Shown in pieces: positions 1,162-29,385 of a stretch of DNA of 36,871 nucleotides. The notes beneath the pieces are model-generated. The model was not told where the DNA came from. It made no database searches and saw only the letters and a list, made by a program, of their open reading frames with translations. Source of the stretch: a virus; IMG/VR virus record IMGVR_UViG_3300045988_105062; one strand, given 5' to 3'. The translations under genes were made by a program, and so were the position numbers. Numbering within the stretch: the first letter of the stretch is position 1; each line of letters opens with the position of its first letter.

Positions 1162-1314
1162 TGGAACAGATGTAAGGTGCATTGTTTCACAGACATACGC
1201 AAGTCTGAATTCAATAATATCCCCGGTGGTGCCGGCGAGAGCTGGCACCATTACTCCTAAATTGATAATTATCCCCTCTTAAGGCACTGACGAAAGTTGG
1301 TGCCTTATTTTGTT
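1162..1314 (+). ncRNA. putative ~150-nt structured leader or small RNA ending at an intrinsic terminator
   Basis: No ORF. 10-12 bp GC-rich stem 1225-1252 is capped by a GAGA (GNRA) tetraloop; CU-rich tracts CTCCT and CCCCTCTT; terminator at 1281-1314. Confidence 0.4.
1281..1314 (+). terminator. intrinsic terminator
   Basis: AAGGCAC-12 nt loop-GTGCCTT followed by ATTTTGTT. Confidence 0.6.
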
Positions 1315-1341
1315 GAAATAAATATAAAAATGTTTTATTAT
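1313..1341 (+). promoter_or_regulatory. sigma-A type promoter of the AT-rich moron
   Basis: TTGAAA, 17-nt spacer, TATTAT; about 30 nt upstream of the ParA-like start. Confidence 0.5.
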
Positions 1342-1356
1342 ATGATTATTATAATT

Positions 1357-1365
1357 GGGGGGGGG
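1357..1365 (+). repeat. G9 homopolymer serving as, or overlapping, the ribosome-binding site
   Basis: ATTGGGGGGGGGAATGATATG; the only long G run in a very AT-rich block. Confidence 0.9.
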
Positions 1366-1371
1366 AATGAT

Positions 1372-2229
1372 ATGAATAAAAATATAATTTCTTTTTTAAA
1401 TATGAAAGGTGGAGTATGTAAAACTACTTTATGTAAAGAAATTGCGTTACATTTATCTAATAATATGAATAAAAAGGTATTAGTTATAGATATAGATCCT
1501 CAGGCAAACTGTACACAATCTTTTTTTGAGCATTTCAAAGTGATACAAATAAAAGATGATGAAATAATTACAGACATTAATTCATTACCGACAATTCAAA
1601 ATTTGTATAGAACTTCTGGTTCAATGTTAGAAGGTGCAAATACAGAAAAAATTGTATATAAATTAACAGATAATTTGCATTTAATTCCGGGAGAATTAAA
1701 TGTTTACTTTATGGATAGAGAAATAGGATCTGGGGCAGCAGAGCATATATTGTGTAATTTTGTAGAAGATAGTGATTTTAGAAAAAAATATGATTATATA
1801 TTTATAGACTGTCCTCCAACATATTCATTTTATACAATAACAGCGTTACTGACGAGTGATTTTTATTTAGTACCTGTTGTTCCAGATGCATATTCTATGT
1901 TGGGAGTAAGTATGTTGGATAGTGTTGTTGATAGATTAAAGGGAACATATAGAAGAGATTTTGATAGTCATTCATTGGATTGTTTAGGAATAATATTTAC
2001 CAAAATAGATTCAAATCCGTCCAAAGGAATAAAAAGAAATATGAAAAATATTTCAAAAGCATTTAAGGATACAAAGATATTTAATACTGTATTTCCGAAT
2101 TCTCCCAAATTAATTACATCAGATATGTCAAAGTTTATTTCTGATAGACAAGATACAAATTTAATAACATCTTTAGAAGATATTTGCATAGAATTTGATA
2201 AGGAGGTTACTATTAGAAATGAAGAATAA
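1372..2229 (+). CDS. ParA/MinD-family P-loop ATPase (285 aa)
   Basis: Deviant Walker A NMKGGVCKTT, A' box VLVIDIDPQAN, Walker B YDYIFIDCPP. Confidence 0.85.
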   Translation: MNKNIISFLNMKGGVCKTTLCKEIALHLSNNMNKKVLVIDIDPQANCTQSFFEHFKVIQIKDDEIITDINSLPTIQNLYRTSGSMLEGANTEKIVYKLTDNLHLIPGELNVYFMDREIGSGAAEHILCNFVEDSDFRKKYDYIFIDCPPTYSFYTITALLTSDFYLVPVVPDAYSMLGVSMLDSVVDRLKGTYRRDFDSHSLDCLGIIFTKIDSNPSKGIKRNMKNISKAFKDTKIFNTVFPNSPKLITSDMSKFISDRQDTNLITSLEDICIEFDKEVTIRNEE

Positions 2230-2596
2230 GATATATAAAAAAATAATGATAACACAAGGAATAAAAGATATTGATGAATTCAAGATGGAAATGTATTCTA
2301 TTTTAACAAGTATTGTATATGATAGAAATATATATAAACATAATAAGGAATTAGAAGAATTATTTTTAAAATTAAATATTCCATGTAAGCCGTATTTGTT
2401 AAAAAGCAGAAATCAATCAATTATAAAATTTTTAAGTGTAATACATAAATCAACTTATGAAGAGTTAGTTGAACAATTACAGATATTAAAAAAAGTGATG
2501 ATAGAAAGTATGGAAGAAGATAATAAAGTAGAAACAAATGAAGAAAACAAAGAAAGTGATTATGACATATTGGTGAAGAAATATGGAAAAAAATAG
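2219..2596 (+). CDS. hypothetical protein, 125 aa, acidic C-terminus; translationally coupled to the ParA-like gene
   Basis: ATG overlaps the upstream stop by 11 nt; AAGGAGG upstream; no recognisable motif. Confidence 0.65.
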   Translation: MKNKIYKKIMITQGIKDIDEFKMEMYSILTSIVYDRNIYKHNKELEELFLKLNIPCKPYLLKSRNQSIIKFLSVIHKSTYEELVEQLQILKKVMIESMEEDNKVETNEENKESDYDILVKKYGKK

Positions 2597-3254
2597 TCAA
2601 TTAGGCGAATATGAAGAGTTTTTAAAAAAAGTATTTCCTGAATGTCAATATAATAAAGAATATGATTTGTTATATAAAAGAATATGTAGTTTTAATATTT
2701 TTATAGAAATATTAAAAAATTACATAAATGATGAAAAAGTAGAATTTTTTATTTCTAAAATAATATATGGATATAATATGTTATTAATGTATGTACCATT
2801 AAGTGATAGTATGGGAATAACAGCGTGTATGAGATATATTACTGAACAAACACTTAAGTGTTTTTATTCATATATTTTTAAAGATAAATCAATAAAGAAA
2901 ATTAATGAAACATCATACAGAAATATTAAAGAAGATATAAAAAGCGAATATACAGATAAAGATTATTTAAATAGGTTGTATTCTCAATATGCAAAATATT
3001 CTAATGAAGTTCATGATAAGTTGAAATTAGAAAATAAAGAGATAGAATATATATATGATATATTATCAAGAGAAAATACAATGATTGAATACATAAATAA
3101 AGATGTTTATACATTGATGAAAATATTATTTAAGTTTTTAATACATAATTATGAAATTAAATATAAGTCGTTTAATATATCTCAAAGGATAAATTATGAA
3201 AAAATATTTTCAAGTAAATTTCATAAGGAATTTGATGAGTTATTAGGAGGTTAA
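2583..3254 (+). CDS. hypothetical protein, 223 aa, helical and Lys/Tyr/Ile-rich
   Basis: ATG overlaps the upstream gene by 14 nt; no recognisable motif. Confidence 0.7.
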   Translation: MEKNSQLGEYEEFLKKVFPECQYNKEYDLLYKRICSFNIFIEILKNYINDEKVEFFISKIIYGYNMLLMYVPLSDSMGITACMRYITEQTLKCFYSYIFKDKSIKKINETSYRNIKEDIKSEYTDKDYLNRLYSQYAKYSNEVHDKLKLENKEIEYIYDILSRENTMIEYINKDVYTLMKILFKFLIHNYEIKYKSFNISQRINYEKIFSSKFHKEFDELLGG

Positions 3255-13823: not shown

Positions 13824-13834
13824 GCAGTTTTTTT
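13804..13834 (+). terminator. intrinsic terminator overlapping the gene end
   Basis: CTGCTTACT-6 nt loop-AGTAGGCAG followed by T7. Confidence 0.65.
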
Positions 13835-13853
13835 GTGCCAGAAAGGAGGGAGA

Positions 13854-16580
13854 ATGTCAGATACAGTAGGACAGATAGCTCTGGAGCTTGGCATAGACAG
13901 CTCACAGATAGTTAATCAGCTTACAGGAGCTTCTAATAAGGCAGCTAAGCAGGCAACAACTATCTTTTCTGGGCTTGGTAAGAAGATAGCTGCAGGACTA
14001 AGTATAGCAGCAGTTACTAAGTTCACGAAAGACTGTATAGAAGTTGGTTCAAATGTCACAGAAGTGCAGAATGTAGTTGATACAGCATTTAAGGACTTAA
14101 GCTGGCGGGCAGACCAGTGGGCTTCCAATGCTATGACTAACTTCGGCTTATCGGAATTATCGGCTAAGAAGTACATGGGTGTGTTTGGCCAGATGAGTAA
14201 TGCTATGGGTATTACAGGTAAGGCGGCGCTTGATATGGCTGAAAATGTCACAGGATTAACCGGTGATGTTGCATCATTTTATAATCTTGGGACAGATGAG
14301 GCATATACAAAGCTTAAGTCTATATGGACTGGTGAGACTGAAACACTCAAGGACTTGGGCGTGATTATGACTCAGACCAACTTAGACCAGTATGCACTTA
14401 ATAACGGCTTCGGTAAGACCACAGCCAAGATGACAGAGCAGGAAAAGGTAATGCTACGTTATCAATATGTAACAAGTGCATTATCCAATGCTACAGGAGA
14501 TTTTGTTAAGACACAGGACTCTTGGGCGAACCAGACAAGAATACTTACATTAAGGTTTCAGCAGTTAAAGGCTAGTCTTGGTAAAGGCTTCATAGCATTG
14601 TTTACACCTATTCTGCGTGGATTTAATAGTCTGCTTGCAGGATTGCAGAAAGTGGCAGATGGATTTGCCAGTTTCGTGCAGATGCTTACAGGTGTCGATA
14701 TATCATCCTCTATGGGAAGTATAAGTGCTGATATAGCAGGCATAGGAGATGATGCTGGAGGTGCTGCAGATAATGTAAGTGGAATAGGAGATGCAGCTAA
14801 GAAGACAGCAAAGGATATTGAGAAGTCCCTTGCAGGCTTTGACCAGATAAATAAGCTGACAGAGCCGACGGATGATAGCAGTTCGTCTGGTTCATCAGGT
14901 ACTGGCACAGCATCGGGTTCAGTATCCGCAATGGGTACTAATGTATCTAATGAAATTGGAAAAGCAGGAGATGAACTTAATAAGTTCAAGCAGATAATAG
15001 AAGATATTGCTGCAACATTCAAGGAAGGCTTTAAAAAAGGTTTAGGTACTGACTTTGAGAAAAGCATCAAGAGACAGCGGAAACTGCTTTTAAGCATTAA
15101 AGATAGTCTTATAGATATATTTACAGATAGAAATGTAGTTGATTCTGCGAAGAATTACTTTGACAGCATAGTAATGAATGCCGGCAGGATAACAGGCTCT
15201 TTTGTGAATATTGGTACTTCGATAAGTGAGAATCTGTTAGGTGGAATAGATAAATATTTATCATCTAATAAGGATTTTATTAAGATAAGATTATCTGAAA
15301 TGTTTGATGCAAGGGCTGTATTGTGGAATAAGATTGGTGATTTTTCGGAGTTCCTTTCGCAAATATCTGAAATATTCAGAGGTGATGCAGCACAGGGAAT
15401 ATCTGCTGATTTGATAGGTATTTTTGTTAATCCATTTATAACAATAGTGTCTCTATGTAACCAATTCGTGGCAGATTTGATTTCAACGTTTGTGGACCCG
15501 GTTATCGAAAATACGGATAAAATCAAGCAGGCATTTGAATCAACGCTGGAACCTATTAGGAATGTATTAGATGAGATAACGGCTGTGATTGAAGAAACCT
15601 GTAATAAAGCTGTACAGATGTATGATGAGCATATCTCACCATTATTTGACACTGTAAAAACAGGTCTTAGCGATACATTTGGCAAGCTGTTAGATGTATA
15701 TAATACATATTTTGTTCCGGTACTTAACAACATAGCTGACAAACTAAAAGAAATATGGGGTTCACACATTGAACCTTTGATGACAAAAATAATTGACATT
15801 ATAGGTCATGTTGCAGATGTTATTAAAGTATTGTGGGAGAATATATTGAAACCGGTTATTGACTGGATTGTAGAAAATGTTATCCCTAAATTAGCACCAG
15901 TAATGGACTGGATATCAGATATTGCAACGGAAAAGTTTGGAAATGTAATAGATATTATCAAGGATGTATTATCAGTCTTTGATGATGTATTGGTATTCGT
16001 GAAAGATGTCTTTAGCGGAAACTGGTCGGATGCGTGGAATGATATTGTTAATACATTTAGCGATATATTCTCAACAATAGGCGATATTGCAAAGGGTCCT
16101 ATAAATATGGTGATTGGACTTATAAATGGTATGCTTGACGGATTAGAAAGTGGTATTAACTGGATGGTTCGTAAGGTAAATGGCTTAAGCTTTGATGTGC
16201 CTGACTGGGTACCGGTTATAGGTGGTGACCATTTCGGGTTTGATTTGCCGGAAGTTGGGTTTGGCAGTATTCCATATCTTGCAGAAGGTGGATATGTAAA
16301 ACCAAATACTCCACAGCTTGCAATGATAGGTGATAACAGACACCAGGGCGAAGTTGTAGCTCCAGAGGATAAGCTTATTGATATGGCACAGAAGGCAGCA
16401 GCTATGGCATCAAGTGCTGAATTGTTGTCTGAGGCTATAAGCATTCTTAAGCAGATACTTAAAGTGTTGGAAACATTAGATCTTGATATACAGCTTGATG
16501 GAAAGAGTCTTAAGAAATATGTAGTTGATAAGATAAATGAACATACAAAACAGACAGGAAAATGTGAGATTATAACTTAA
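13854..16580 (+). CDS. tail tape measure protein
   Basis: 908 aa, Gly/Ser/Ala-rich centre, long helical repeats; GAAAGGAGGG RBS. Confidence 0.9.
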   Translation: MSDTVGQIALELGIDSSQIVNQLTGASNKAAKQATTIFSGLGKKIAAGLSIAAVTKFTKDCIEVGSNVTEVQNVVDTAFKDLSWRADQWASNAMTNFGLSELSAKKYMGVFGQMSNAMGITGKAALDMAENVTGLTGDVASFYNLGTDEAYTKLKSIWTGETETLKDLGVIMTQTNLDQYALNNGFGKTTAKMTEQEKVMLRYQYVTSALSNATGDFVKTQDSWANQTRILTLRFQQLKASLGKGFIALFTPILRGFNSLLAGLQKVADGFASFVQMLTGVDISSSMGSISADIAGIGDDAGGAADNVSGIGDAAKKTAKDIEKSLAGFDQINKLTEPTDDSSSSGSSGTGTASGSVSAMGTNVSNEIGKAGDELNKFKQIIEDIAATFKEGFKKGLGTDFEKSIKRQRKLLLSIKDSLIDIFTDRNVVDSAKNYFDSIVMNAGRITGSFVNIGTSISENLLGGIDKYLSSNKDFIKIRLSEMFDARAVLWNKIGDFSEFLSQISEIFRGDAAQGISADLIGIFVNPFITIVSLCNQFVADLISTFVDPVIENTDKIKQAFESTLEPIRNVLDEITAVIEETCNKAVQMYDEHISPLFDTVKTGLSDTFGKLLDVYNTYFVPVLNNIADKLKEIWGSHIEPLMTKIIDIIGHVADVIKVLWENILKPVIDWIVENVIPKLAPVMDWISDIATEKFGNVIDIIKDVLSVFDDVLVFVKDVFSGNWSDAWNDIVNTFSDIFSTIGDIAKGPINMVIGLINGMLDGLESGINWMVRKVNGLSFDVPDWVPVIGGDHFGFDLPEVGFGSIPYLAEGGYVKPNTPQLAMIGDNRHQGEVVAPEDKLIDMAQKAAAMASSAELLSEAISILKQILKVLETLDLDIQLDGKSLKKYVVDKINEHTKQTGKCEIIT

Positions 16581-21261: not shown

Positions 21262-21741
21262 ATGATAACTTTAAAATATATATATGTAGAAGCAGCACAT
21301 AACAAATTGATACAGCTTGTTATAATAGCAATAATAACAGATACGGTCTTTGGTATGTTAAGAGCAATTAAAGATCACGATTTTAATAGCTGTTTTGGAA
21401 TTAATGGAGCAATCCGAAAATGTGCAATGATTTTATCTATAATATTGCTTGTTATTGTCGATTATATAACACAATTTAATTTAATAGGTTTCTTGCCTGA
21501 AGAAGTAAGACGTTTTTTTGGAGAAAGTATTGGTATCTCTGAATTTTTTGAAATTCTATTTTTAACCTATGAAGTTGTTAGTATATTAAAAAATATGGTT
21601 CTATGTGGATTGCCAGTAAAAAAAGTATGGCTGTATGTTAAGATGTTCCTGAGTAAATATACAGATGAGCTTCCAGATGATGATGAGCTTGCAGATACAA
21701 CAAGCAAAACAGAATTAGGCAATGAAAAATATATTAGTTAG
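21262..21741 (+). CDS. holin (phage_holin_4-like)
   Basis: ITDTVFGMLRAIKDHDFNSCFGINGAIRKCAMILSIILLVIVDYI, at least two TM segments, acidic tail, directly upstream of the endolysin. Confidence 0.75.
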   Translation: MITLKYIYVEAAHNKLIQLVIIAIITDTVFGMLRAIKDHDFNSCFGINGAIRKCAMILSIILLVIVDYITQFNLIGFLPEEVRRFFGESIGISEFFEILFLTYEVVSILKNMVLCGLPVKKVWLYVKMFLSKYTDELPDDDELADTTSKTELGNEKYIS

Positions 21742-21820: not shown

Positions 21821-22738
21821 ATGAATAAACAGGAATTTTTAGATTTAATTGTGCCACTTGCACAGACAGAAGCAGAAAGAAGAAAGATGGCAGGTACAGG
21901 TTTTGTACTTCCAAGCATATGTATCGGACAGGCTGTATTAGAGACAGGCTGGGGCGGATCTGCCTTAATGACAAAGGCTAATGCGTTCTTTGGTATTAAG
22001 GCTACTGAGAGTTGGAATGGAAAAGTATTTAGTTCCTCAACACAGGAGTGCTATGATAATGTTAATTATACTACTATTACAGCAGCATTTAGAGCATATG
22101 ATACTCCAGCTGATAGTGTAAGAGATTATTACGATCTTATCACAAATAATTCACGTTATGCAGCAGCAGTAAATGTAACAGATGCCCTTGAAGCTATTAC
22201 TGCGATTAAAAATGGCGGTTATGCTACAAGTCCTACATATGTAGAAAATGTTATGTCGATTATTAATAGCAATGACTTAACACAGTATGATAATGTAGTA
22301 ACAGAAAATACAGAGTCAAACTTACAGCCTGATATAGATACAACAAAGTATCACGAGGGTGATTTTGTGACATATGACACAATATATGCTTCATCAACAT
22401 CATCAGATGGACTTGTACCATCAAATGGCTTTACTAGTGGCACTATCACGAGAGTTCTTCCGGGTGCGGCAAATCCTTATCTTATTGATGATGGAACAGG
22501 CTGGATTAATGATGGCTGTATTACATCTGAAGATAATTCAAATACTGAAAGCTCTGATAATGATATAAATGTTGGCGATAAGGTGCGTGTGCTTGTTAAT
22601 GCTACTTACGATGGTGGTTCTTTTGCAATGTACTATGATGAATATGATGTATTAGAAGTTAAAGGAGACCGAGTAGTTATCGGTATTGGAGATGTTGTAA
22701 CTTGTGCTATTAATATTTGCAATATCGAAAGAGTTTAA
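21821..22738 (+). CDS. endolysin: GH73 N-acetylglucosaminidase with C-terminal SH3-like binding repeats
   Basis: QAVLETGWGGSALMTKANAFFGIKA glucosaminidase motif. Confidence 0.85.
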   Translation: MNKQEFLDLIVPLAQTEAERRKMAGTGFVLPSICIGQAVLETGWGGSALMTKANAFFGIKATESWNGKVFSSSTQECYDNVNYTTITAAFRAYDTPADSVRDYYDLITNNSRYAAAVNVTDALEAITAIKNGGYATSPTYVENVMSIINSNDLTQYDNVVTENTESNLQPDIDTTKYHEGDFVTYDTIYASSTSSDGLVPSNGFTSGTITRVLPGAANPYLIDDGTGWINDGCITSEDNSNTESSDNDINVGDKVRVLVNATYDGGSFAMYYDEYDVLEVKGDRVVIGIGDVVTCAINICNIERV

Positions 22739-23064: not shown

Positions 23065-23385
23065 ATGAAATACGAAATTGAAGAAATTGGAAGAGATAAG
23101 GGGTATAAAATCGGGGAGCAGGAACTCTATAGAATAATAGATACAGTATTCCCAACTCGCGACTTCGGCGAGGGCTGGCACGAGGAAACAAGTGGAAATA
23201 TCTGGGAGAAAGGAGATAAAAAAAGAAATTACCTTAAGTTAAAGAGGTATAGAAACTATAAAATTAGAGAGGAAGAAAATCTCGGCTACTACGACTATAT
23301 AAGAGAAGCTTACATAGTAACAAGCTACAGAATAGTAGTAACTGATGTGATAGAAAAATATAACGAAATGGAAAAGGAAAATTAA
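23065..23385 (+). CDS. hypothetical small protein (106 aa), first gene of the post-lysis moron
   Basis: GAAGGGAGAAG RBS; no recognisable motif. Confidence 0.65.
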   Translation: MKYEIEEIGRDKGYKIGEQELYRIIDTVFPTRDFGEGWHEETSGNIWEKGDKKRNYLKLKRYRNYKIREEENLGYYDYIREAYIVTSYRIVVTDVIEKYNEMEKEN

Positions 23386-23386
23386 A

Positions 23387-23959
23387 ATGAAAACAAATTT
23401 TAAAATGACAGAGGAAATAAGACTAGTTAAACAGTTGGCAAAATTAAATATATTAGGCGTAAGATACGCAGAAAGACACAAAGGCCTTATATACTCGACT
23501 TGGCGAGATGTTGAGCGCTTCATTACAGGCGGCAAACCAGCCTGTACATATGAGTACGCTGTAAATAAACTGTGCGAAAATGCTATGAAGCTGTGCGGAA
23601 ACAGCGATTACCTCGTAAGCGAAACACTTAAGCTTAAAGAGGAGATAGAAAACAGTGATATTAAAGAATTGAGGTTCGGGCTTGAACCTCGAAAGAAATT
23701 TACAGAGCTAGAGAATGAGTTAAATACAGAGCTGACAAAGTATCATCTATTGTATAACTCGGACACAGTAGAAATAAAGAAAGCGGCTGAGATACTTGAC
23801 GGTAAAGTGACAGAGAGTGCAATCAAGCAGGCTTGCCAGCAGGAGCGATTAATGAACACAAAAAAAGTAGGGAATGTGTGGTTGGTGAGCTTATCTGAGT
23901 GCCGCAATTATTGGGAAATACCAGACGATGACGAAAAGGCACTAAAATGGGAGTATTAA
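23387..23959 (+). CDS. hypothetical protein (190 aa) with a C-terminal excisionase/MerR-like HTH
   Basis: IKKAAEILDGKVTESAIKQACQQERLMNTKKVGNVWLVSLSECRNYW; start lies 1 nt after the upstream stop. Confidence 0.6.
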   Translation: MKTNFKMTEEIRLVKQLAKLNILGVRYAERHKGLIYSTWRDVERFITGGKPACTYEYAVNKLCENAMKLCGNSDYLVSETLKLKEEIENSDIKELRFGLEPRKKFTELENELNTELTKYHLLYNSDTVEIKKAAEILDGKVTESAIKQACQQERLMNTKKVGNVWLVSLSECRNYWEIPDDDEKALKWEY

Positions 23960-24368: not shown

Positions 24369-25835
24369 TTATTTTTGCAGGAAGAAGTACACTTCCAATT
24401 TATCATTTTCTTTATCATATACCATATGGTCAACAACACTTCTTATAGCATTAGCCCTTGTAAGAGTATTATTAGAGGTATCTTTTATAATGTCATATAC
24501 AGTTGATATACTCTTAAGCATGGCTGCATTAGAATCATCAGATGCTAAGCTGAAGGCTTCCAACTGTTTTTTAAGTGCTTTACGTTCGTCCTTAATCAGT
24601 TGTTTATTTTCTTTATATTCTTCTATTGTATCAATTCCATCCCGGTATGCTTGCTTTATTCTTGCTTCTTTATCATCAAGTTTAGATAATTTACTAAGAA
24701 GTATATCTCTGTCATCTGTATTAGCTTCGTTTGAAGCTTTTTTTAGTTCGTAATGCAATTCGGCAGTTCCATCAAAAACTCGTTCAAATGCGTTATATAC
24801 AGCCTGTTCAAGGGCAGCAGTTTTTATAAAATGGCTATGCAGACATTTGCCTTTGTTGTAGTTGCCGCATTGGTAACGTGTAGCATTAAGCCCAGCCATA
24901 AGAGAAGCTCCGCAGTCAGAACATTTCACAATTCCACCAAGCCAATGCTTCATATGTCCAGCGGCTCGTGCTTTGTATGGTTTGCTCCTTAAAGCCATAA
25001 GATGTTGTACCAAATCCCAAGTTTCTTTATTAATTATTGCTGGGTGTTTACCCATAACAATAATCCATTCACTAATGTCCTTTATTGTATGATTGTCGTG
25101 ATTTTGTCTATTCCAGCGGACGGCTCCATAATAAAATGGATTACTTAATATATATTCAACAGTACGTCCCTCAAATGCAGCCCCGCGCTTAGTTTTATAT
25201 CCAAGGGCATTAAGTTCCCTGGCAATTTCCAAGTAGCTGTGGCCGGCAATGTAGTCATTGTATATTTTTCTTACAATAACAGCTTCTTCTTCGTATATGT
25301 AAGGAATGCCAGTCTCTTTATTCATTCGGTATCCAAGAGGCAGAGAAGACTGGTAACCACCTCGTAAGGCTTTCTCAGTCATACCTCTTAGAACTTCGCC
25401 AGACAGACGAATAGAATAGTATTCATCCATCCACTCTATTATACGTTCTATTAAGGTACCAAAAGGACCATCAATAAGTGGCTCGGATACACTCACAACA
25501 TCAACACGGTTCTTTTTAAGTAAAGATTTGTAGACAATCGATTCTTCTTGATTACGCGCAAATCGGCTGAATTTCCATACAAGAATAACATCGAATGGGT
25601 GTTCTTTGCTTTTTGCCATTCCTATCATTTTCATAAATTCTGGTCGTTTGTCTGCTTTCTTGCCGGAAATACCATTATCAATGTAAATGTTTTCTGCCAG
25701 AAGTGACATATTATTCTTTTTTGCAAAGTCAATCAAAAGCCGCTTCTGTGCATCTGGTGAAAGTTCTTCCTGTTTATCTGTGGACACACGTATGTAGGCA
25801 CAAGCAGATTTCATATTAAGTATATCCCTAGCCAT
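24369..25835 (-). CDS. int: large serine recombinase (integrase)
   Basis: CAYIRVSTDKQ catalytic Ser motif, resolvase N-domain, recombinase domain, Cys-rich zinc ribbon CSDCG...CGNYNKGKC, C-terminal coiled coil; start MARD after AAAGGA. Confidence 0.92.
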   Translation of the reverse strand: MARDILNMKSACAYIRVSTDKQEELSPDAQKRLLIDFAKKNNMSLLAENIYIDNGISGKKADKRPEFMKMIGMAKSKEHPFDVILVWKFSRFARNQEESIVYKSLLKKNRVDVVSVSEPLIDGPFGTLIERIIEWMDEYYSIRLSGEVLRGMTEKALRGGYQSSLPLGYRMNKETGIPYIYEEEAVIVRKIYNDYIAGHSYLEIARELNALGYKTKRGAAFEGRTVEYILSNPFYYGAVRWNRQNHDNHTIKDISEWIIVMGKHPAIINKETWDLVQHLMALRSKPYKARAAGHMKHWLGGIVKCSDCGASLMAGLNATRYQCGNYNKGKCLHSHFIKTAALEQAVYNAFERVFDGTAELHYELKKASNEANTDDRDILLSKLSKLDDKEARIKQAYRDGIDTIEEYKENKQLIKDERKALKKQLEAFSLASDDSNAAMLKSISTVYDIIKDTSNNTLTRANAIRSVVDHMVYDKENDKLEVYFFLQK

Positions 25836-25865
25836 ATTAATCATCCTTTCTGTAAAATATATGCA

Positions 25866-26050: not shown

Positions 26051-26081
26051 AAATCATAACGGCATTATCACCGAGATGGTA

Positions 26082-26114
26082 TAAAAAGACTCTGGGCCCG
26101 AAGGACACCAGAGT
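26082..26114 (-). terminator. intrinsic terminator downstream of the 533-aa gene
   Basis: Minus strand ACTCTGG-12 nt loop-CCAGAGT then CTTTTTAT; preceded by a second 10-bp hairpin at 26115-26142. Confidence 0.6.
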
Positions 26115-26205
26115 ACATTCAAGAGTAGTGTATCTTGAATGTATATTAGTGTCAATAGTCATTCCCACATCTCCAACACATAAAATGTTGGTTTAAAGCT
26201 GATAA

Positions 26206-27807
26206 TTATTCGTCTTCATCATCATCAAGAGAGTATGAGTTAGTATAGTTAGAATCAGAAGAAAGAGATTGACGATATTCGCCAGCTACCATTGTTTTGT
26301 TAAATTCTGCCGTTGGTTCTATTTCATCAACTATCTTTTCAAGCTCATCTATAGATATCTTGAAAAATTCCTTACGCATATTAACTTTATTTACACGTCT
26401 ATCATTAAGTATTTCGTGCATCTTATTTTCAAGAGCTACAGCATCTTTAGAGAATATGAAGCTATGTACATCAAATTTAAAAGGAACGCTGGCGTTTCCG
26501 AGCTCATTAATTCTGTCTTGAGGTTCAAGCCTACGTGTCATACCTACTTTAAATACATCTTCACCAAAAGCTCCTAAGTTACTTATTATATAAACAGTAC
26601 CGGCTTTACCATTTTGTAAGTTAGTTATTTCATCCTTTTTAATAATTACTTCACCTAATTGAGATTGAAGTTCAAGGATTCTTGCCTTGAGTTTATCAAT
26701 TTCTGATTCATCAGTAGTATTTAACATAGTATCTTGCAACTTACTAATTTCAGTATTGAACTTTTCTTCTTCCTGTTGAATATGTTTCTTTTCACGTTCA
26801 AGAGCTTTACGTTCTTCAGCTTCCTGTCGCATTTGTTCTTTAAGAGCCATCTGTTCTTGCTTAGCTTGCTCACGTTTAACATAGTAATTATATTCAATTT
26901 TAACAGCATTAATAAAGAGATATTCTAATTCGCCTATGAACTTTGTAAGAGTACCAGCAATAGTCTGATTGCCTTCGCCAGCAATCTTAAGGTATTTAGC
27001 AGAAATATCTTTTACATGTTCGATTGCAGTATCTAGCTTTTCATATTTTAGTGCATATAATACATTCTGTAATTCAGCTCTTAATGCTATTACCATTAGG
27101 TTGTAGATAGCTTTATTAGCTTTGGTTGTATATCTGGCAGAATATTGCTTTAAAAGATTGTCTATAAGCTTTTCATTATCTTTATAAGCTTTTCGCAGAC
27201 TCTTTATGTCCATACAATGTAATTTAAGAATTACTGAAGGAGCAATTTCTTCGGCATCTTTTAAATCACTTGTGCTTAATATGCAACTATTATAAGGGAT
27301 TTCTAAATTTATGAAGTTATCAAATGCATAAGCAAAACTTTTATACAATTCTTTGGAACGTGATATTTTACGCTGCTGGGTTGCAAGAGATTTTTTTAGT
27401 TTATCATCCTGTTGTTGCAATTCATTAATTTCAGTTCTCAATTTATCAATTAATACATTATTACTCTGTATTTCTTCATTGAGAGAATCAAGGTTAGCCT
27501 TTGCTTCGCTTTCAGCAGAAGCAATCTTTGTGGCTGATTCCTGTTCTATTTGTTCAATCTTTTTCTTTGTTTCTATATATTCAGTAACACCTAGCTCATC
27601 ACATGTTTGTTTCATTTCAGAATATTCCTGCGATAGTTGATTGTTCTGATTGAATGTTTGTGTAAATAGTTCTTTTTGTTTCTTATCATTTACAGCTTTT
27701 ATGATAAGAAGAATAATGCCGATTATAGGCGGAATAATAAGAAACCAGCATGCACATAAAAGTGCAATAAACCAAGTGCTTAAGTACCATTTGCTTTTAG
27801 TGTTCAT
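26206..27807 (-). CDS. membrane-anchored coiled-coil protein with a DUF4041-like region and a C-terminal T5orf172/MUG113 (GIY-YIG superfamily) domain, 533 aa
   Basis: N-terminal TM WYLSTWFIALLCACWFLIIPPIIGIILLII. About 350 aa of Glu/Lys/Gln heptad-like sequence. C-terminus GTVYIISNLGAFGEDVFKVGMTRRLEPQDRINELG...ALENKMHEILNDRRVN...KEFFKISIDEL. AGGAGG lies 9 nt upstream of the ATG at 27807. Confidence 0.8.
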   Translation of the reverse strand: MNTKSKWYLSTWFIALLCACWFLIIPPIIGIILLIIKAVNDKKQKELFTQTFNQNNQLSQEYSEMKQTCDELGVTEYIETKKKIEQIEQESATKIASAESEAKANLDSLNEEIQSNNVLIDKLRTEINELQQQDDKLKKSLATQQRKISRSKELYKSFAYAFDNFINLEIPYNSCILSTSDLKDAEEIAPSVILKLHCMDIKSLRKAYKDNEKLIDNLLKQYSARYTTKANKAIYNLMVIALRAELQNVLYALKYEKLDTAIEHVKDISAKYLKIAGEGNQTIAGTLTKFIGELEYLFINAVKIEYNYYVKREQAKQEQMALKEQMRQEAEERKALEREKKHIQQEEEKFNTEISKLQDTMLNTTDESEIDKLKARILELQSQLGEVIIKKDEITNLQNGKAGTVYIISNLGAFGEDVFKVGMTRRLEPQDRINELGNASVPFKFDVHSFIFSKDAVALENKMHEILNDRRVNKVNMRKEFFKISIDELEKIVDEIEPTAEFNKTMVAGEYRQSLSSDSNYTNSYSLDDDEDE

Positions 27808-27823
27808 AATTGTTAGCCTCCTA

Positions 27824-28648
27824 TTATAATAATTTCCAACTGTATCCACAATTTAAGCATTTAACTACACCTTGTTTGCTTGAAAGTCCGCCTATAATTG
27901 CTCCAGTACTTCCAAATGCAGCACCTCCAAGAAGAGCTCTTCCCAAACTTAATTTTTTAGTGGAATAGTTTATGCTGGTACTTCCACATTTAGGACAACA
28001 AGCTATTCCATTAGCTTTGTTTTCTTTTACTTTTTCTTTAATCTGTCCTTTTTTTGTAATTGATGGATTCTTTGTATTCCAAATAGGAGTGCCATTTTTG
28101 GGATGTGGCACATTTCCTATAATTGTATTTATTTTTTCAGTATCATTTTTATCTACAATATAAAATCCGGTATCCTTTTTTCCACAATAAGGGCATTTTT
28201 CAGCTTTTACTAGTAACTTATCACCGCAATTATTACAGATTTTTATTTTATTAGATAAATCATTACCATTGGAATCTGTAATTATATTTTTTTCTAAGAA
28301 TTGATGTACATCTTTTATATCAGAATTAACACCGGTATATAATAGTCCATCATATATTTTTTTGAGTTTTTTATCTGATGCAGACAAAACCCAGAAATTA
28401 TCATCAATAAATTCTATTACAATGTAAGGATTTGCTAAAAATACATTAGTAATTTCCTCGCTTTTATATAAAGATTTTGTATTACCTGTAACGTCGAGGA
28501 GTAATCCTGCGTTATATAGTCCAATACTACAATAGGTTTTTTCAGCAGATGATGTTCCATTTATATATTTTGCAGTAGTAAGAAATGTAAAACTTGAAAA
28601 CCCTCCTTCTTTTTTTATATTTTTGAATTGTTCCTTAGATATATCCAT
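27824..28648 (-). CDS. double zinc-ribbon protein with a C-terminal glycine-zipper segment, 274 aa
   Basis: CNNCGDKLLVKAEKCPYCG, and CCPKCG...GGAAFGSTGAIIGG...CLNCG; start lies 1 nt after the upstream stop. Confidence 0.7.
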   Translation of the reverse strand: MDISKEQFKNIKKEGGFSSFTFLTTAKYINGTSSAEKTYCSIGLYNAGLLLDVTGNTKSLYKSEEITNVFLANPYIVIEFIDDNFWVLSASDKKLKKIYDGLLYTGVNSDIKDVHQFLEKNIITDSNGNDLSNKIKICNNCGDKLLVKAEKCPYCGKKDTGFYIVDKNDTEKINTIIGNVPHPKNGTPIWNTKNPSITKKGQIKEKVKENKANGIACCPKCGSTSINYSTKKLSLGRALLGGAAFGSTGAIIGGLSSKQGVVKCLNCGYSWKLL

Positions 28649-28649
28649 A

Positions 28650-28880
28650 TTAAATATCCCTCTCTTCTCTATGTGCAAATATTTCAACTACCTGAACATC
28701 TTTGTCTGGCTTGTCGTAATCGCCATTTTCAATATGCTTCATCTCGTGATGATAAGCCAACATCAATTGTTCCATTGAGTGTCTGGCATTTAAGACTATG
28801 GTATAGGTATCATCATCACAGCAAACAGTATATGCCTTAATTGTAGTAGGCATATCTACATATAAAATATTAGTATCCAA
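28650..28880 (-). CDS. short ImmA/IrrE-family metallopeptidase (76 aa)
   Basis: HExxH motif in AYHHEMKHIENGDY; immediately downstream of the XRE repressor. Confidence 0.7.
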   Translation of the reverse strand: MDTNILYVDMPTTIKAYTVCCDDDTYTIVLNARHSMEQLMLAYHHEMKHIENGDYDKPDKDVQVVEIFAHREERDI

Positions 28881-28898: not shown

Positions 28899-29285
28899 TT
28901 AATCATTTTTGTTAGACATTCGGTCAATCATCTCCTTTACAAACTGAATATCTTCTTTCTTTACCTTGCGTGATGCATCAAATAATACTTTATAGTCAGG
29001 GTTCTCATATAAGAACTGAGCCATATCCCTTGCATCATCATTAAGGTAGTATGTATCGGGAATAACTTCTGTTGTTGGCTTTTTACCAAGAAGAAAATTC
29101 ATATCTACATTAAAAGTATCTGCTATTAATTCAAGAGTTTCAAAGTTGGGTTCTCTTTCTCCTTTTTCGTACATTCCAATGGCACTTCGGGATATGCCAA
29201 GTTTATCTGCCATCTGTTGTTGTGTTAAACCACTTTGTTCTCTTATTCTTTTGAATATATTAGGAAAATCGCCCATCTGTTTCAA
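28899..29285 (-). CDS. XRE-family lysogeny repressor (CI-like)
   Basis: IFKRIREQSGLTQQQMADKLGISRSAIGMYEKGEREPNFETLELIADTFNV HTH; divergent from the Cro-like gene. Confidence 0.85.
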   Translation of the reverse strand: MKQMGDFPNIFKRIREQSGLTQQQMADKLGISRSAIGMYEKGEREPNFETLELIADTFNVDMNFLLGKKPTTEVIPDTYYLNDDARDMAQFLYENPDYKVLFDASRKVKKEDIQFVKEMIDRMSNKND

Positions 29286-29313: not shown

Positions 29314-29358
29314 AACACGTTTTGTGGAAAAATCAAGAAAAATTCCACAAAATGTGTT
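29314..29358. promoter_or_regulatory. operator: 16-bp inverted arms AACACGTTTTGTGGAA / TTCCACAAAATGTGTT, 13-nt spacer
   Basis: 15 of 16 positions are complementary. The right arm overlaps the -35 of the rightward promoter; the left arm lies in the spacer of a leftward TTGATT-17-ATTATT promoter. Confidence 0.7.
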
Positions 29359-29385
29359 GACACAATTCGTGACGAGTGATATATT
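29357..29385 (+). promoter_or_regulatory. early rightward promoter TTGACA-17-TATATT
   Basis: Exact -35, 17-nt spacer, TATATT; about 40 nt upstream of the Cro-like start. Confidence 0.7.

Follow-up and report, generated by a model that had tools for sequence, protein, structure and literature searches.

Two genes that lie between the repressor and the integrase of a gut phage raise the question of whether they form a new two-gene system for keeping out other phages or are separate passengers that happen to share an operon. The phage is IMG/VR record IMGVR_UViG_3300045988_105062, a stretch of 36,871 nucleotides (nt) that was analysed as a whole and is referred to here as the window; both genes lie on its minus strand and encode proteins of 274 and 533 amino acids (aa). 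A preliminary description of the same DNA, made from its letters without database searches, had read them as a sensor/effector pair for superinfection exclusion or abortive infection. Our analysis favors a different explanation, to which we assign a probability of roughly 0.8, namely that the 533-aa protein is a homologue of SNIPE, also catalogued as PD-lambda-1, that the 274-aa gene is an independent moron, and that both occupy the cargo slot of the lysogeny operon. The window is a temperate siphovirus-type phage with a human-gut Lachnospiraceae host, and a Lachnospira metagenome-assembled genome (MAG) carries a 98%-identical homologue of the 274-aa protein with a SNIPE homologue (97%) adjoining it.

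What is the 533-aa protein? PADLOC analysis matched it to two PD-Lambda-1 profiles, PDLC03976 (E 1.9e-82) and PDLC03977 (E 8e-75), and phrog_1847 covers residues 28-524 (E 3.5e-98). Comparison with the annotated PD-lambda-1 of Escherichia phage PhiR26_1 gave E 1e-47 by BLASTP, with 42% identity over the linker and nuclease, and E 1.7e-46 by hhalign, and the N-terminal transmembrane and coil region aligns with E. coli PD-lambda-1 (hhalign, E 7e-7). Residue E460 aligns with the catalytic E414 of PhiR26_1 PD-lambda-1 and E. coli SNIPE and is invariant in 35 homologues. By homology, the 533-aa protein is a new member of the known single-protein SNIPE/PD-lambda-1 family. The earlier statement that no characterised system matched these genes was overturned by the PADLOC search, as PD-lambda-1 has been characterised as SNIPE (PMC13190303). 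The gene and the parts of its product are located as follows.

26206-27807, minus strand: open reading frame (ORF) of the 533-aa protein, with its ATG at 27807 behind AGGAGG and its stop codon at 26206-26208.
27697-27789, minus strand: N-terminal transmembrane helix, residues 7-37 (Kyte-Doolittle maximum 2.76; helical in the AlphaFold2 model).
26878-27126, minus strand: helical middle domain at the DUF4041 position, divergent, residues 228-310 (helices at 229-252, 258-278 and from 284 onward).
26320-26601, minus strand: T5orf172/MUG113 nuclease domain of the GIY-YIG superfamily, residues 403-496 (Pfam T5orf172 E 5e-16, MUG113 E 7e-18).

The single N-terminal transmembrane helix and the C-terminal T5orf172/MUG113 domain had both been recognized in the preliminary description, and its proposal of a membrane-tethered, nuclease-type anti-phage effector is likewise consistent with the SNIPE/PD-lambda-1 profile match. 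A GTG at 27849 was considered as the start codon and rejected in favor of the ATG, which has the ribosome-binding site (RBS) and agrees with the starts of homologues.

PD-lambda-1 was discovered in a screen of the E. coli pangenome (Vassallo, 2022; PMC9519451) and was characterised as SNIPE, a single-gene system (Saxton, 2026, Nature; PMC13190303). The E. coli protein consists of an N-terminal transmembrane helix, DUF4041 and a C-terminal GIY-YIG nuclease; it resides in the inner membrane, cuts phage DNA during injection, and associates with ManYZ and with the tape-measure protein, its DUF4041 binding both DNA and the tape-measure protein (PMC13190303). Defence is lost in the E414A mutant, removal of the transmembrane helix renders the protein toxic to the host, and 59% of SNIPE homologues have one transmembrane helix in their first 70 residues (PMC13190303). 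In Streptococcus thermophilus, a PD-lambda-1 homologue acting as a single gene provides >3 logs of protection (10.1101/2024.10.22.618286). Like E. coli SNIPE, the 533-aa protein is a prophage-borne single polypeptide whose first 70 residues contain a transmembrane helix, with a long stretch of helices in the middle, a C-terminal GIY-YIG/T5orf172 domain, the catalytic Glu retained and a strong match to the family profile. It differs from the E. coli type in its overall identity (~28%), in a middle region that is not seen as Pfam DUF4041, in a host that is a Gram-positive member of the Lachnospiraceae and thus without the ManYZ/LamB context, and in a gene that is embedded in a repressor operon where that of E. 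coli stands alone. ORF3 of Streptococcus prophage EJ-1 and the S. thermophilus PD-lambda-1 homologues resemble the 533-aa gene in belonging to Firmicutes, whether prophage or chromosomal, and the order in EJ-1 (cI, the DUF4041 protein ORF3, which is a SNIPE homologue, ORF2 and integrase) shares the window's succession of repressor, SNIPE homologue and integrase. Unlike the 533-aa protein, EJ-1 ORF3 is DUF4041-positive by Pfam, and unlike the window, neither EJ-1 nor the S. thermophilus homologues have a 274-aa-like gene upstream.

Residues ~7-37 are the sole strong hydrophobic stretch of the 533-aa protein, and the K-rich flank on the C-terminal side of this helix predicts an N-out/C-in topology. 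Two SNIPE homologues that are ~60% identical to the 533-aa protein, P0114 and P0118 (602 aa), have a zinc ribbon N-terminal to the hydrophobic segment, and the segment itself has a central Pro/Gly kink (WP..GIP), where the 533-aa protein has PP. It is possible that this N-terminal segment of ~30 residues is a re-entrant hairpin rather than a single spanning helix. Tandem SNIPE homologues, 44% and 86% identical to the 533-aa protein, were observed downstream of one XRE/ImmA pair at L287:3640-6581.

The middle of the protein required separate consideration, as it had been described as DUF4041. The Pfam DUF4041 profile (PF13250) found nothing in the 533-aa protein at E<=10, and the same profile finds both E. 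coli PD-lambda-1 and EJ-1 ORF3. The alignment to the PADLOC PD-Lambda-1 profile begins at the middle domain and runs through it; hhalign on the isolated middle region gave a score of 16.0 against a maximum of 15.7 among column-shuffled controls, which is not significant. With PF13250 negative and the isolated region level with shuffled controls, membership in DUF4041 is not claimed. Judging from these profile comparisons, the middle domain that stands in the place of DUF4041 has diverged in the Clostridia-type SNIPE subfamily. The preliminary description had also counted about 350 residues of coiled coil, and the AlphaFold2 model agrees insofar as helices extend over residues ~21-398; these include a compact helical domain at ~172-278, and the region is not coiled coil alone. 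Foldseek analysis of the model against BFVD was not informative, the protein being elongated and helical and the pLDDT of its nuclease low; the only strong match is labelled 'helicase'.

Public records likewise label some homologues of the 533-aa protein 'helicase', 'regulatory protein' or 'chromosome segregation ATPase', and T5orf172 domains are present in homing endonucleases of phages (PMC10448857). Taken together, such records could suggest a role for the 533-aa protein other than that of a defence nuclease, either as a homing endonuclease of the T5orf172 type or as the phage's own DNA-binding regulator. We consider this extremely improbable given that both the profile match and the full-length architecture of transmembrane helix, long helices and nuclease point specifically to PD-lambda-1, that the gene keeps its place in the lysogeny operon whichever of many types of integrase and repressor accompany it, and that there is no sign of an intron or of an intein-like insertion into a host gene.

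If the 533-aa protein is a SNIPE homologue, does the 274-aa gene belong to it? The two genes are neighbors in a single operon, separated by 16 nt, and the adjacent pair recurs in ~15 near-identical viral contigs, as might be expected of an obligate and so far undescribed two-gene exclusion or abortive-infection system with a 274-aa sensor and a 533-aa effector. All of these co-occurrences, however, fall within a single lineage, with SNIPE identities of 98% or more. In two viral contigs, L009 (SNIPE 100% identical) and L019 (98%), SNIPE follows directly after the ImmA-like stop codon without a 274-aa gene, using the same RBS/ATG junction that the window has ahead of its 274-aa gene, and in a third, L018, a 1-nt deletion causes a frameshift in the 274-aa gene and SNIPE is intact. 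Nine further viral loci, with SNIPE at 80-89% identity, also lack the 274-aa gene. Where the 274-aa protein has homologues of 73-84% identity, the genes downstream are others, with a Tyr or Ser integrase after them, and never SNIPE. Examination of 80 metagenome loci anchored on SNIPE homologues of 54-99% identity gave a corresponding picture; 78 of the 80 lack any gene for the C-terminal module of the 274-aa protein (detailed below), and the remaining two are of the window lineage. An integrase lies just downstream in 56 of these 80 loci, and ImmA-like and XRE genes lie upstream in most. The usual layout is XRE-ImmA-SNIPE-integrase, with the 274-aa gene an extra cassette in one lineage.

A control set of 79 contigs anchored on relatives of the integrase had a SNIPE homologue upstream in 15 (19%), comprising at least seven distinct alleles, and a module gene in 5, of which 4 are of the window lineage; as both genes occur together in one lineage only, no association statistic was drawn from this set. 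In addition, SNIPE alone is experimentally sufficient in E. coli (PMC13190303) and in S. thermophilus (10.1101/2024.10.22.618286). The claimed new two-gene system is contradicted by the comparative data and does not hold, and we regard an obligate partnership of sensor and effector as very improbable. The 274-aa gene is a separate, uncharacterised cargo gene (moron) and not the conserved partner of SNIPE.

What, then, does this moron encode? The 274-aa gene and the parts of its product are located as follows.

27824-28648, minus strand: ORF of the 274-aa protein, with its ATG at 28648 and its stop codon at 27824-27826.
28289-28648, minus strand: PH-like fold, residues 1-120 (AlphaFold2, pLDDT 74, and Foldseek).
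28151-28249, minus strand: first zinc ribbon (CNNC...CPYC), residues 134-166 (by motif; Pfam zinc-ribbon matches sub-threshold).
27827-28054, minus strand: C-terminal module (CCPKCGS...glycine zipper...CLNCGxxWK), residues 199-274 (PF27000 PH_gly_zipper; phrog_3845 E 5e-19, phrog_2546 E 3e-18).

The AlphaFold2 model of the protein begins with seven strands (residues 20-89) and a C-terminal helix (92-104), followed by the zinc ribbon, and the top Foldseek matches of this N-terminal part in the PDB are PH domains, including those of CARMIL (E 2e-5), GRK2, Vav1 and ArhGAP9; by sequence, no Pfam bPH family matches the protein. The preliminary description overlooked this PH-like fold and was correct as to the two CxxC ribbons, the second of which is split by a glycine-zipper segment. 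The CxxC motifs are at positions 138, 152, 218 and 264, with GGAAFGSTGAIIGG between the last two, and in the model the C-terminal zinc ribbon is interrupted by a low-confidence glycine-rich insert. Within the module C218, P219, C221, G222 and C267 are invariant and the glycines nearly so. The PF27000 assignment is a precomputed match, marked weak, on the 99%-identical protein P0001. A classical transmembrane helix was considered for the glycine zipper and rejected, its Kyte-Doolittle maximum being 1.35; monotopic insertion of the zipper in the membrane is possible.

The last ~75 residues of the 274-aa protein match 1064 representative proteins at E<=1e-3, and among the 150 best-scoring of these matches nearly all cover the module alone, at the C-terminus and behind varied N-termini. 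Full-length relatives are limited to five clusters (formed at 90% identity) that are 73-99% identical to the protein, and a single relative at 42%. The order of PH-like fold, zinc ribbon and module is rare among PF27000 and bacterial PH-domain proteins; like the 274-aa protein, gp26 of Clostridium phage CP51 (Pfam bPH_3, E 1.4e-9) joins the PF27000 module to a PH-type fold. In PADLOC v2, including its candidate PDC systems, the only match to the 274-aa protein was PDC-S64 at E 0.032, which is noise, and a literature search for a glycine-zipper/zinc-ribbon/PH module in prophages returned nothing relevant. With low confidence, we suggest that the protein is cytoplasmic and membrane-peripheral, is made in the lysogen, and has an exclusion or defence-type role of its own, independent of SNIPE. 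In two relatives without SNIPE, the gene after the 274-aa homologue either starts like the PH-like N-terminus (L076:5840-6087, judged by eye on the translated 5' end) or encodes a 246-aa protein with a precomputed PF27000 match (L002:7050-7790); it thus seems that the slot is a place where this family undergoes duplication.

Could the 274-aa protein instead be an optional accessory of SNIPE, a dispensable membrane or injection-site adaptor or specificity module that tunes which phages are targeted? Module genes flank SNIPE in three separate lineages, the first being that of the window. In Clostridium merdae (L054:4695-7313, same as L110) the order is XRE, ImmA, SNIPE with an N-terminal zinc ribbon, a 318-aa module protein and a serine recombinase, and in a Clostridium MAG (L112:3958-6225) it is a LexA-like repressor, SNIPE, a 308-aa module protein and a serine recombinase. 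The SNIPE homologues of these two lineages have no transmembrane helix, and the adaptor reading is retained because SNIPE homologues without this helix but with fused N-terminal PH or DUF4428 domains are reported (Saxton et al., PMC13190303). Also in its favor are the PH-like fold of the 274-aa protein, whose Foldseek matches include the GRK2 PH domain, the fused N-terminal zinc ribbons on some SNIPE homologues (P0114, P0118 and that of L054), and the occurrence of module genes (phrog_2546/3845) directly beside the gene for the tape measure, a target of SNIPE, in three unrelated lineages (L087:5001-5459, L194:5707-6267 and L162:5479-6213).

The adjacency to SNIPE is nonetheless rare, being found in 3 of 29 species-level module loci (~13 of the 29 have the module gene just upstream of an integrase), in ~2 of 25 viral module lineages and in 2 of 80 SNIPE loci. 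The gene order is reversed between lineages, that of L054/L110 and L112 being opposite to that of the window, and the integrase-anchored control set has both genes in one lineage only. The two families independently prefer the repressor-to-integrase slot, which makes chance co-location expected. Because both families favor the same cargo slots, coincidence is the simplest reading of the adjacency, and we judge an accessory role for the 274-aa protein to be quite unlikely.

The 308-318-aa module proteins of L054 and L112 consist of a zinc ribbon, a middle domain and the C-terminal module, and it is possible that they and their SNIPE homologues represent a recurrent pair distinct from the arrangement in the window. 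The L162 module gene is antisense, lies between tape-measure and chaperone-like genes, and looks like a moron insertion; that of phage CP51 follows the endolysin gene. A broader and still doubtful proposal is that PF27000-module proteins are an unrecognised phage cargo family whose site of action would be the cytoplasmic face of the membrane upon entry of phage DNA, either as exclusion factors or as detachable SNIPE adaptors. The adaptor role may apply particularly to SNIPE-type nucleases without a transmembrane helix, with the 274-aa protein as a PH-like example. Such a family would fit the repressor-to-integrase placement, the tape-measure neighbors and the adjacency to SNIPE in three lineages.

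Four points weigh against our explanation of a SNIPE homologue beside an independent moron. The middle domain is not recognisably DUF4041, and target recognition may differ from that of E. coli SNIPE; the nuclease domain is of low confidence in the AlphaFold2 model; one of two S. thermophilus PD-lambda-1 homologues sharing 98.5% identity is inactive (10.1101/2024.10.22.618286); and module genes adjoin SNIPE in the two other divergent lineages (L054/L110 and L112), which leaves room for an optional link.

How would a SNIPE homologue and a moron be expressed from this position? The remaining features of the locus are as follows.

28899-29285, minus strand: XRE/HTH_3 repressor of 128 aa, gene 1 of the operon (Pfam HTH_3 E 1e-19; NCBIfam phage RstR-like E 5e-18, under the curated cut-off).
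28650-28880, minus strand: 76-aa HExxH protein (HHEMKH), mini ImmA/M78-like (phrog_20886 E 6e-12).
29336-29309, minus strand: promoter-like site upstream of the repressor (TTGATT, 16-nt spacer, TATTAT, with TG).
29357-29385, plus strand: strong divergent promoter-like site, which precedes a Cro-like HTH ORF and opposes the minus-strand site.
26081-26143, minus strand: hairpin and then intrinsic terminator (GC-rich stem and U tract) at the end of the operon (RNA fold z -4.5).
24369-25844, minus strand: large serine recombinase (integrase; Pfam Resolvase, Recombinase and Zn_ribbon_recom), which bounds the cargo slot on its downstream side.

Both ORFs lie where the preliminary description had placed them, and its tight repressor operon was confirmed, with intergenic gaps of 18, 1 and 16 nt in the gene order repressor, 76-aa, 274-aa and 533-aa; no terminator-like site was found within the operon on the minus strand. 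The promoter-like site upstream of the repressor is a consensus match only, such sites being as numerous in the region as expected from shuffled sequence. The hairpin and terminator described after the 533-aa gene are borne out by RNA folding, in which a small stem-loop (26191-26173) is succeeded by a hairpin (26143-26114), a GC-rich stem (26113-26090) and then UCUUUUUAU; none of 200 shuffles (0/200) folded equally well as the terminator region. The region is indeed more AT-rich than the structural genes, with a GC content of 0.295-0.34 over 26-29 kb vs. 0.37-0.42 in most structural genes, and genomes of cultured phages, when searched by megablast with the 5.2-kb region, contained no match. 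The repressor also matches the PADLOC capH model across its full length (E 3.7e-13). The label 'ImmA-like' for the 76-aa protein has as its basis only the HExxH motif and sub-threshold metalloprotease matches (M78 E 0.024, phrog_87 E 0.008). With 76 aa this putative protease has roughly half the length of a normal M78 domain, which is 149-173 aa in related prophages; it retains HExxH, and its gene is kept directly upstream of SNIPE homologues in related phages.

The comparison of this position to that of lambda rexAB, made in the preliminary description, is supported by the placement in the lysogeny operon. Lambda RexAB and the lactococcal and streptococcal Sie2009 and Ltp are encoded by exclusion or defence genes that share a transcript with the repressor or lie beside it, in the repressor-integrase interval, and are expressed in the lysogen. 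The two proteins of RexAB depolarise the membrane and bring about abortive infection; Ltp and Sie2009 act at DNA injection, which they block without a nuclease. The cargo genes of the window share this genomic logic, and the likeness is positional only, as no RexA, RexB or Sie family was among the PADLOC, PHROG, Pfam and NCBIfam matches of the 274-aa or the 533-aa protein.

Taking the preferred reading of a SNIPE homologue and an independent moron, the lysogeny operon would run from the promoter through the XRE repressor, the mini ImmA-like, the 274-aa and the 533-aa genes to the terminator, with the integrase next, and the stretch from the ImmA-like gene to the integrase would be a cargo slot holding two independent morons. 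From homology and operon structure we infer that the prophage expresses SNIPE from the repressor operon in the lysogen. The N-terminal helix would hold the protein in the cytoplasmic membrane, its helical region and nuclease would lie in the cytoplasm, and it would cleave the DNA of superinfecting phages, mainly of siphovirus type, in the course of injection. Neither the resident prophage nor the chromosome would be attacked, both being away from the injection site, and the 533-aa SNIPE would work alone.

Other parts of the window also attracted attention. The AT-richest part (GC 0.21-0.25), at 1297-3254, encodes a ParA/AAA_31-type ATPase (310 aa) together with ORFs of 133 and 223 aa that match no family; this part directly precedes the gene for the small terminase and is a possible further cargo cassette. 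The window's own tape-measure gene is at 13833-16580. At 23065-23959, two ORFs of 106 and 190 aa without a Pfam match occupy a typical cargo-gene position, with the lysis genes (holin, 21262-21741; glucosaminidase, 21821-22738) on one side and the integrase on the other. Elsewhere in the phage group of the window, the serine recombinase adjoins host cotJ/Mn-catalase (CotJC) genes (L001:10340-10711, L003:9407-10189), which suggests integration at a sporulation-gene locus of the Lachnospiraceae host.

The PH/zinc-ribbon/glycine-zipper family is a reasonable yet unproven candidate for screening. The 533-aa protein would extend the SNIPE mechanism to abundant prophages of human-gut Lachnospiraceae, whose lysogeny operons carry the gene very commonly as cargo, as it is upstream of 19% of the related serine integrases sampled. 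The divergent middle domain of the Clostridia proteins may reflect a different tape-measure specificity, and would help to predict the host range of phages and the exclusion that prophages exert in the gut.

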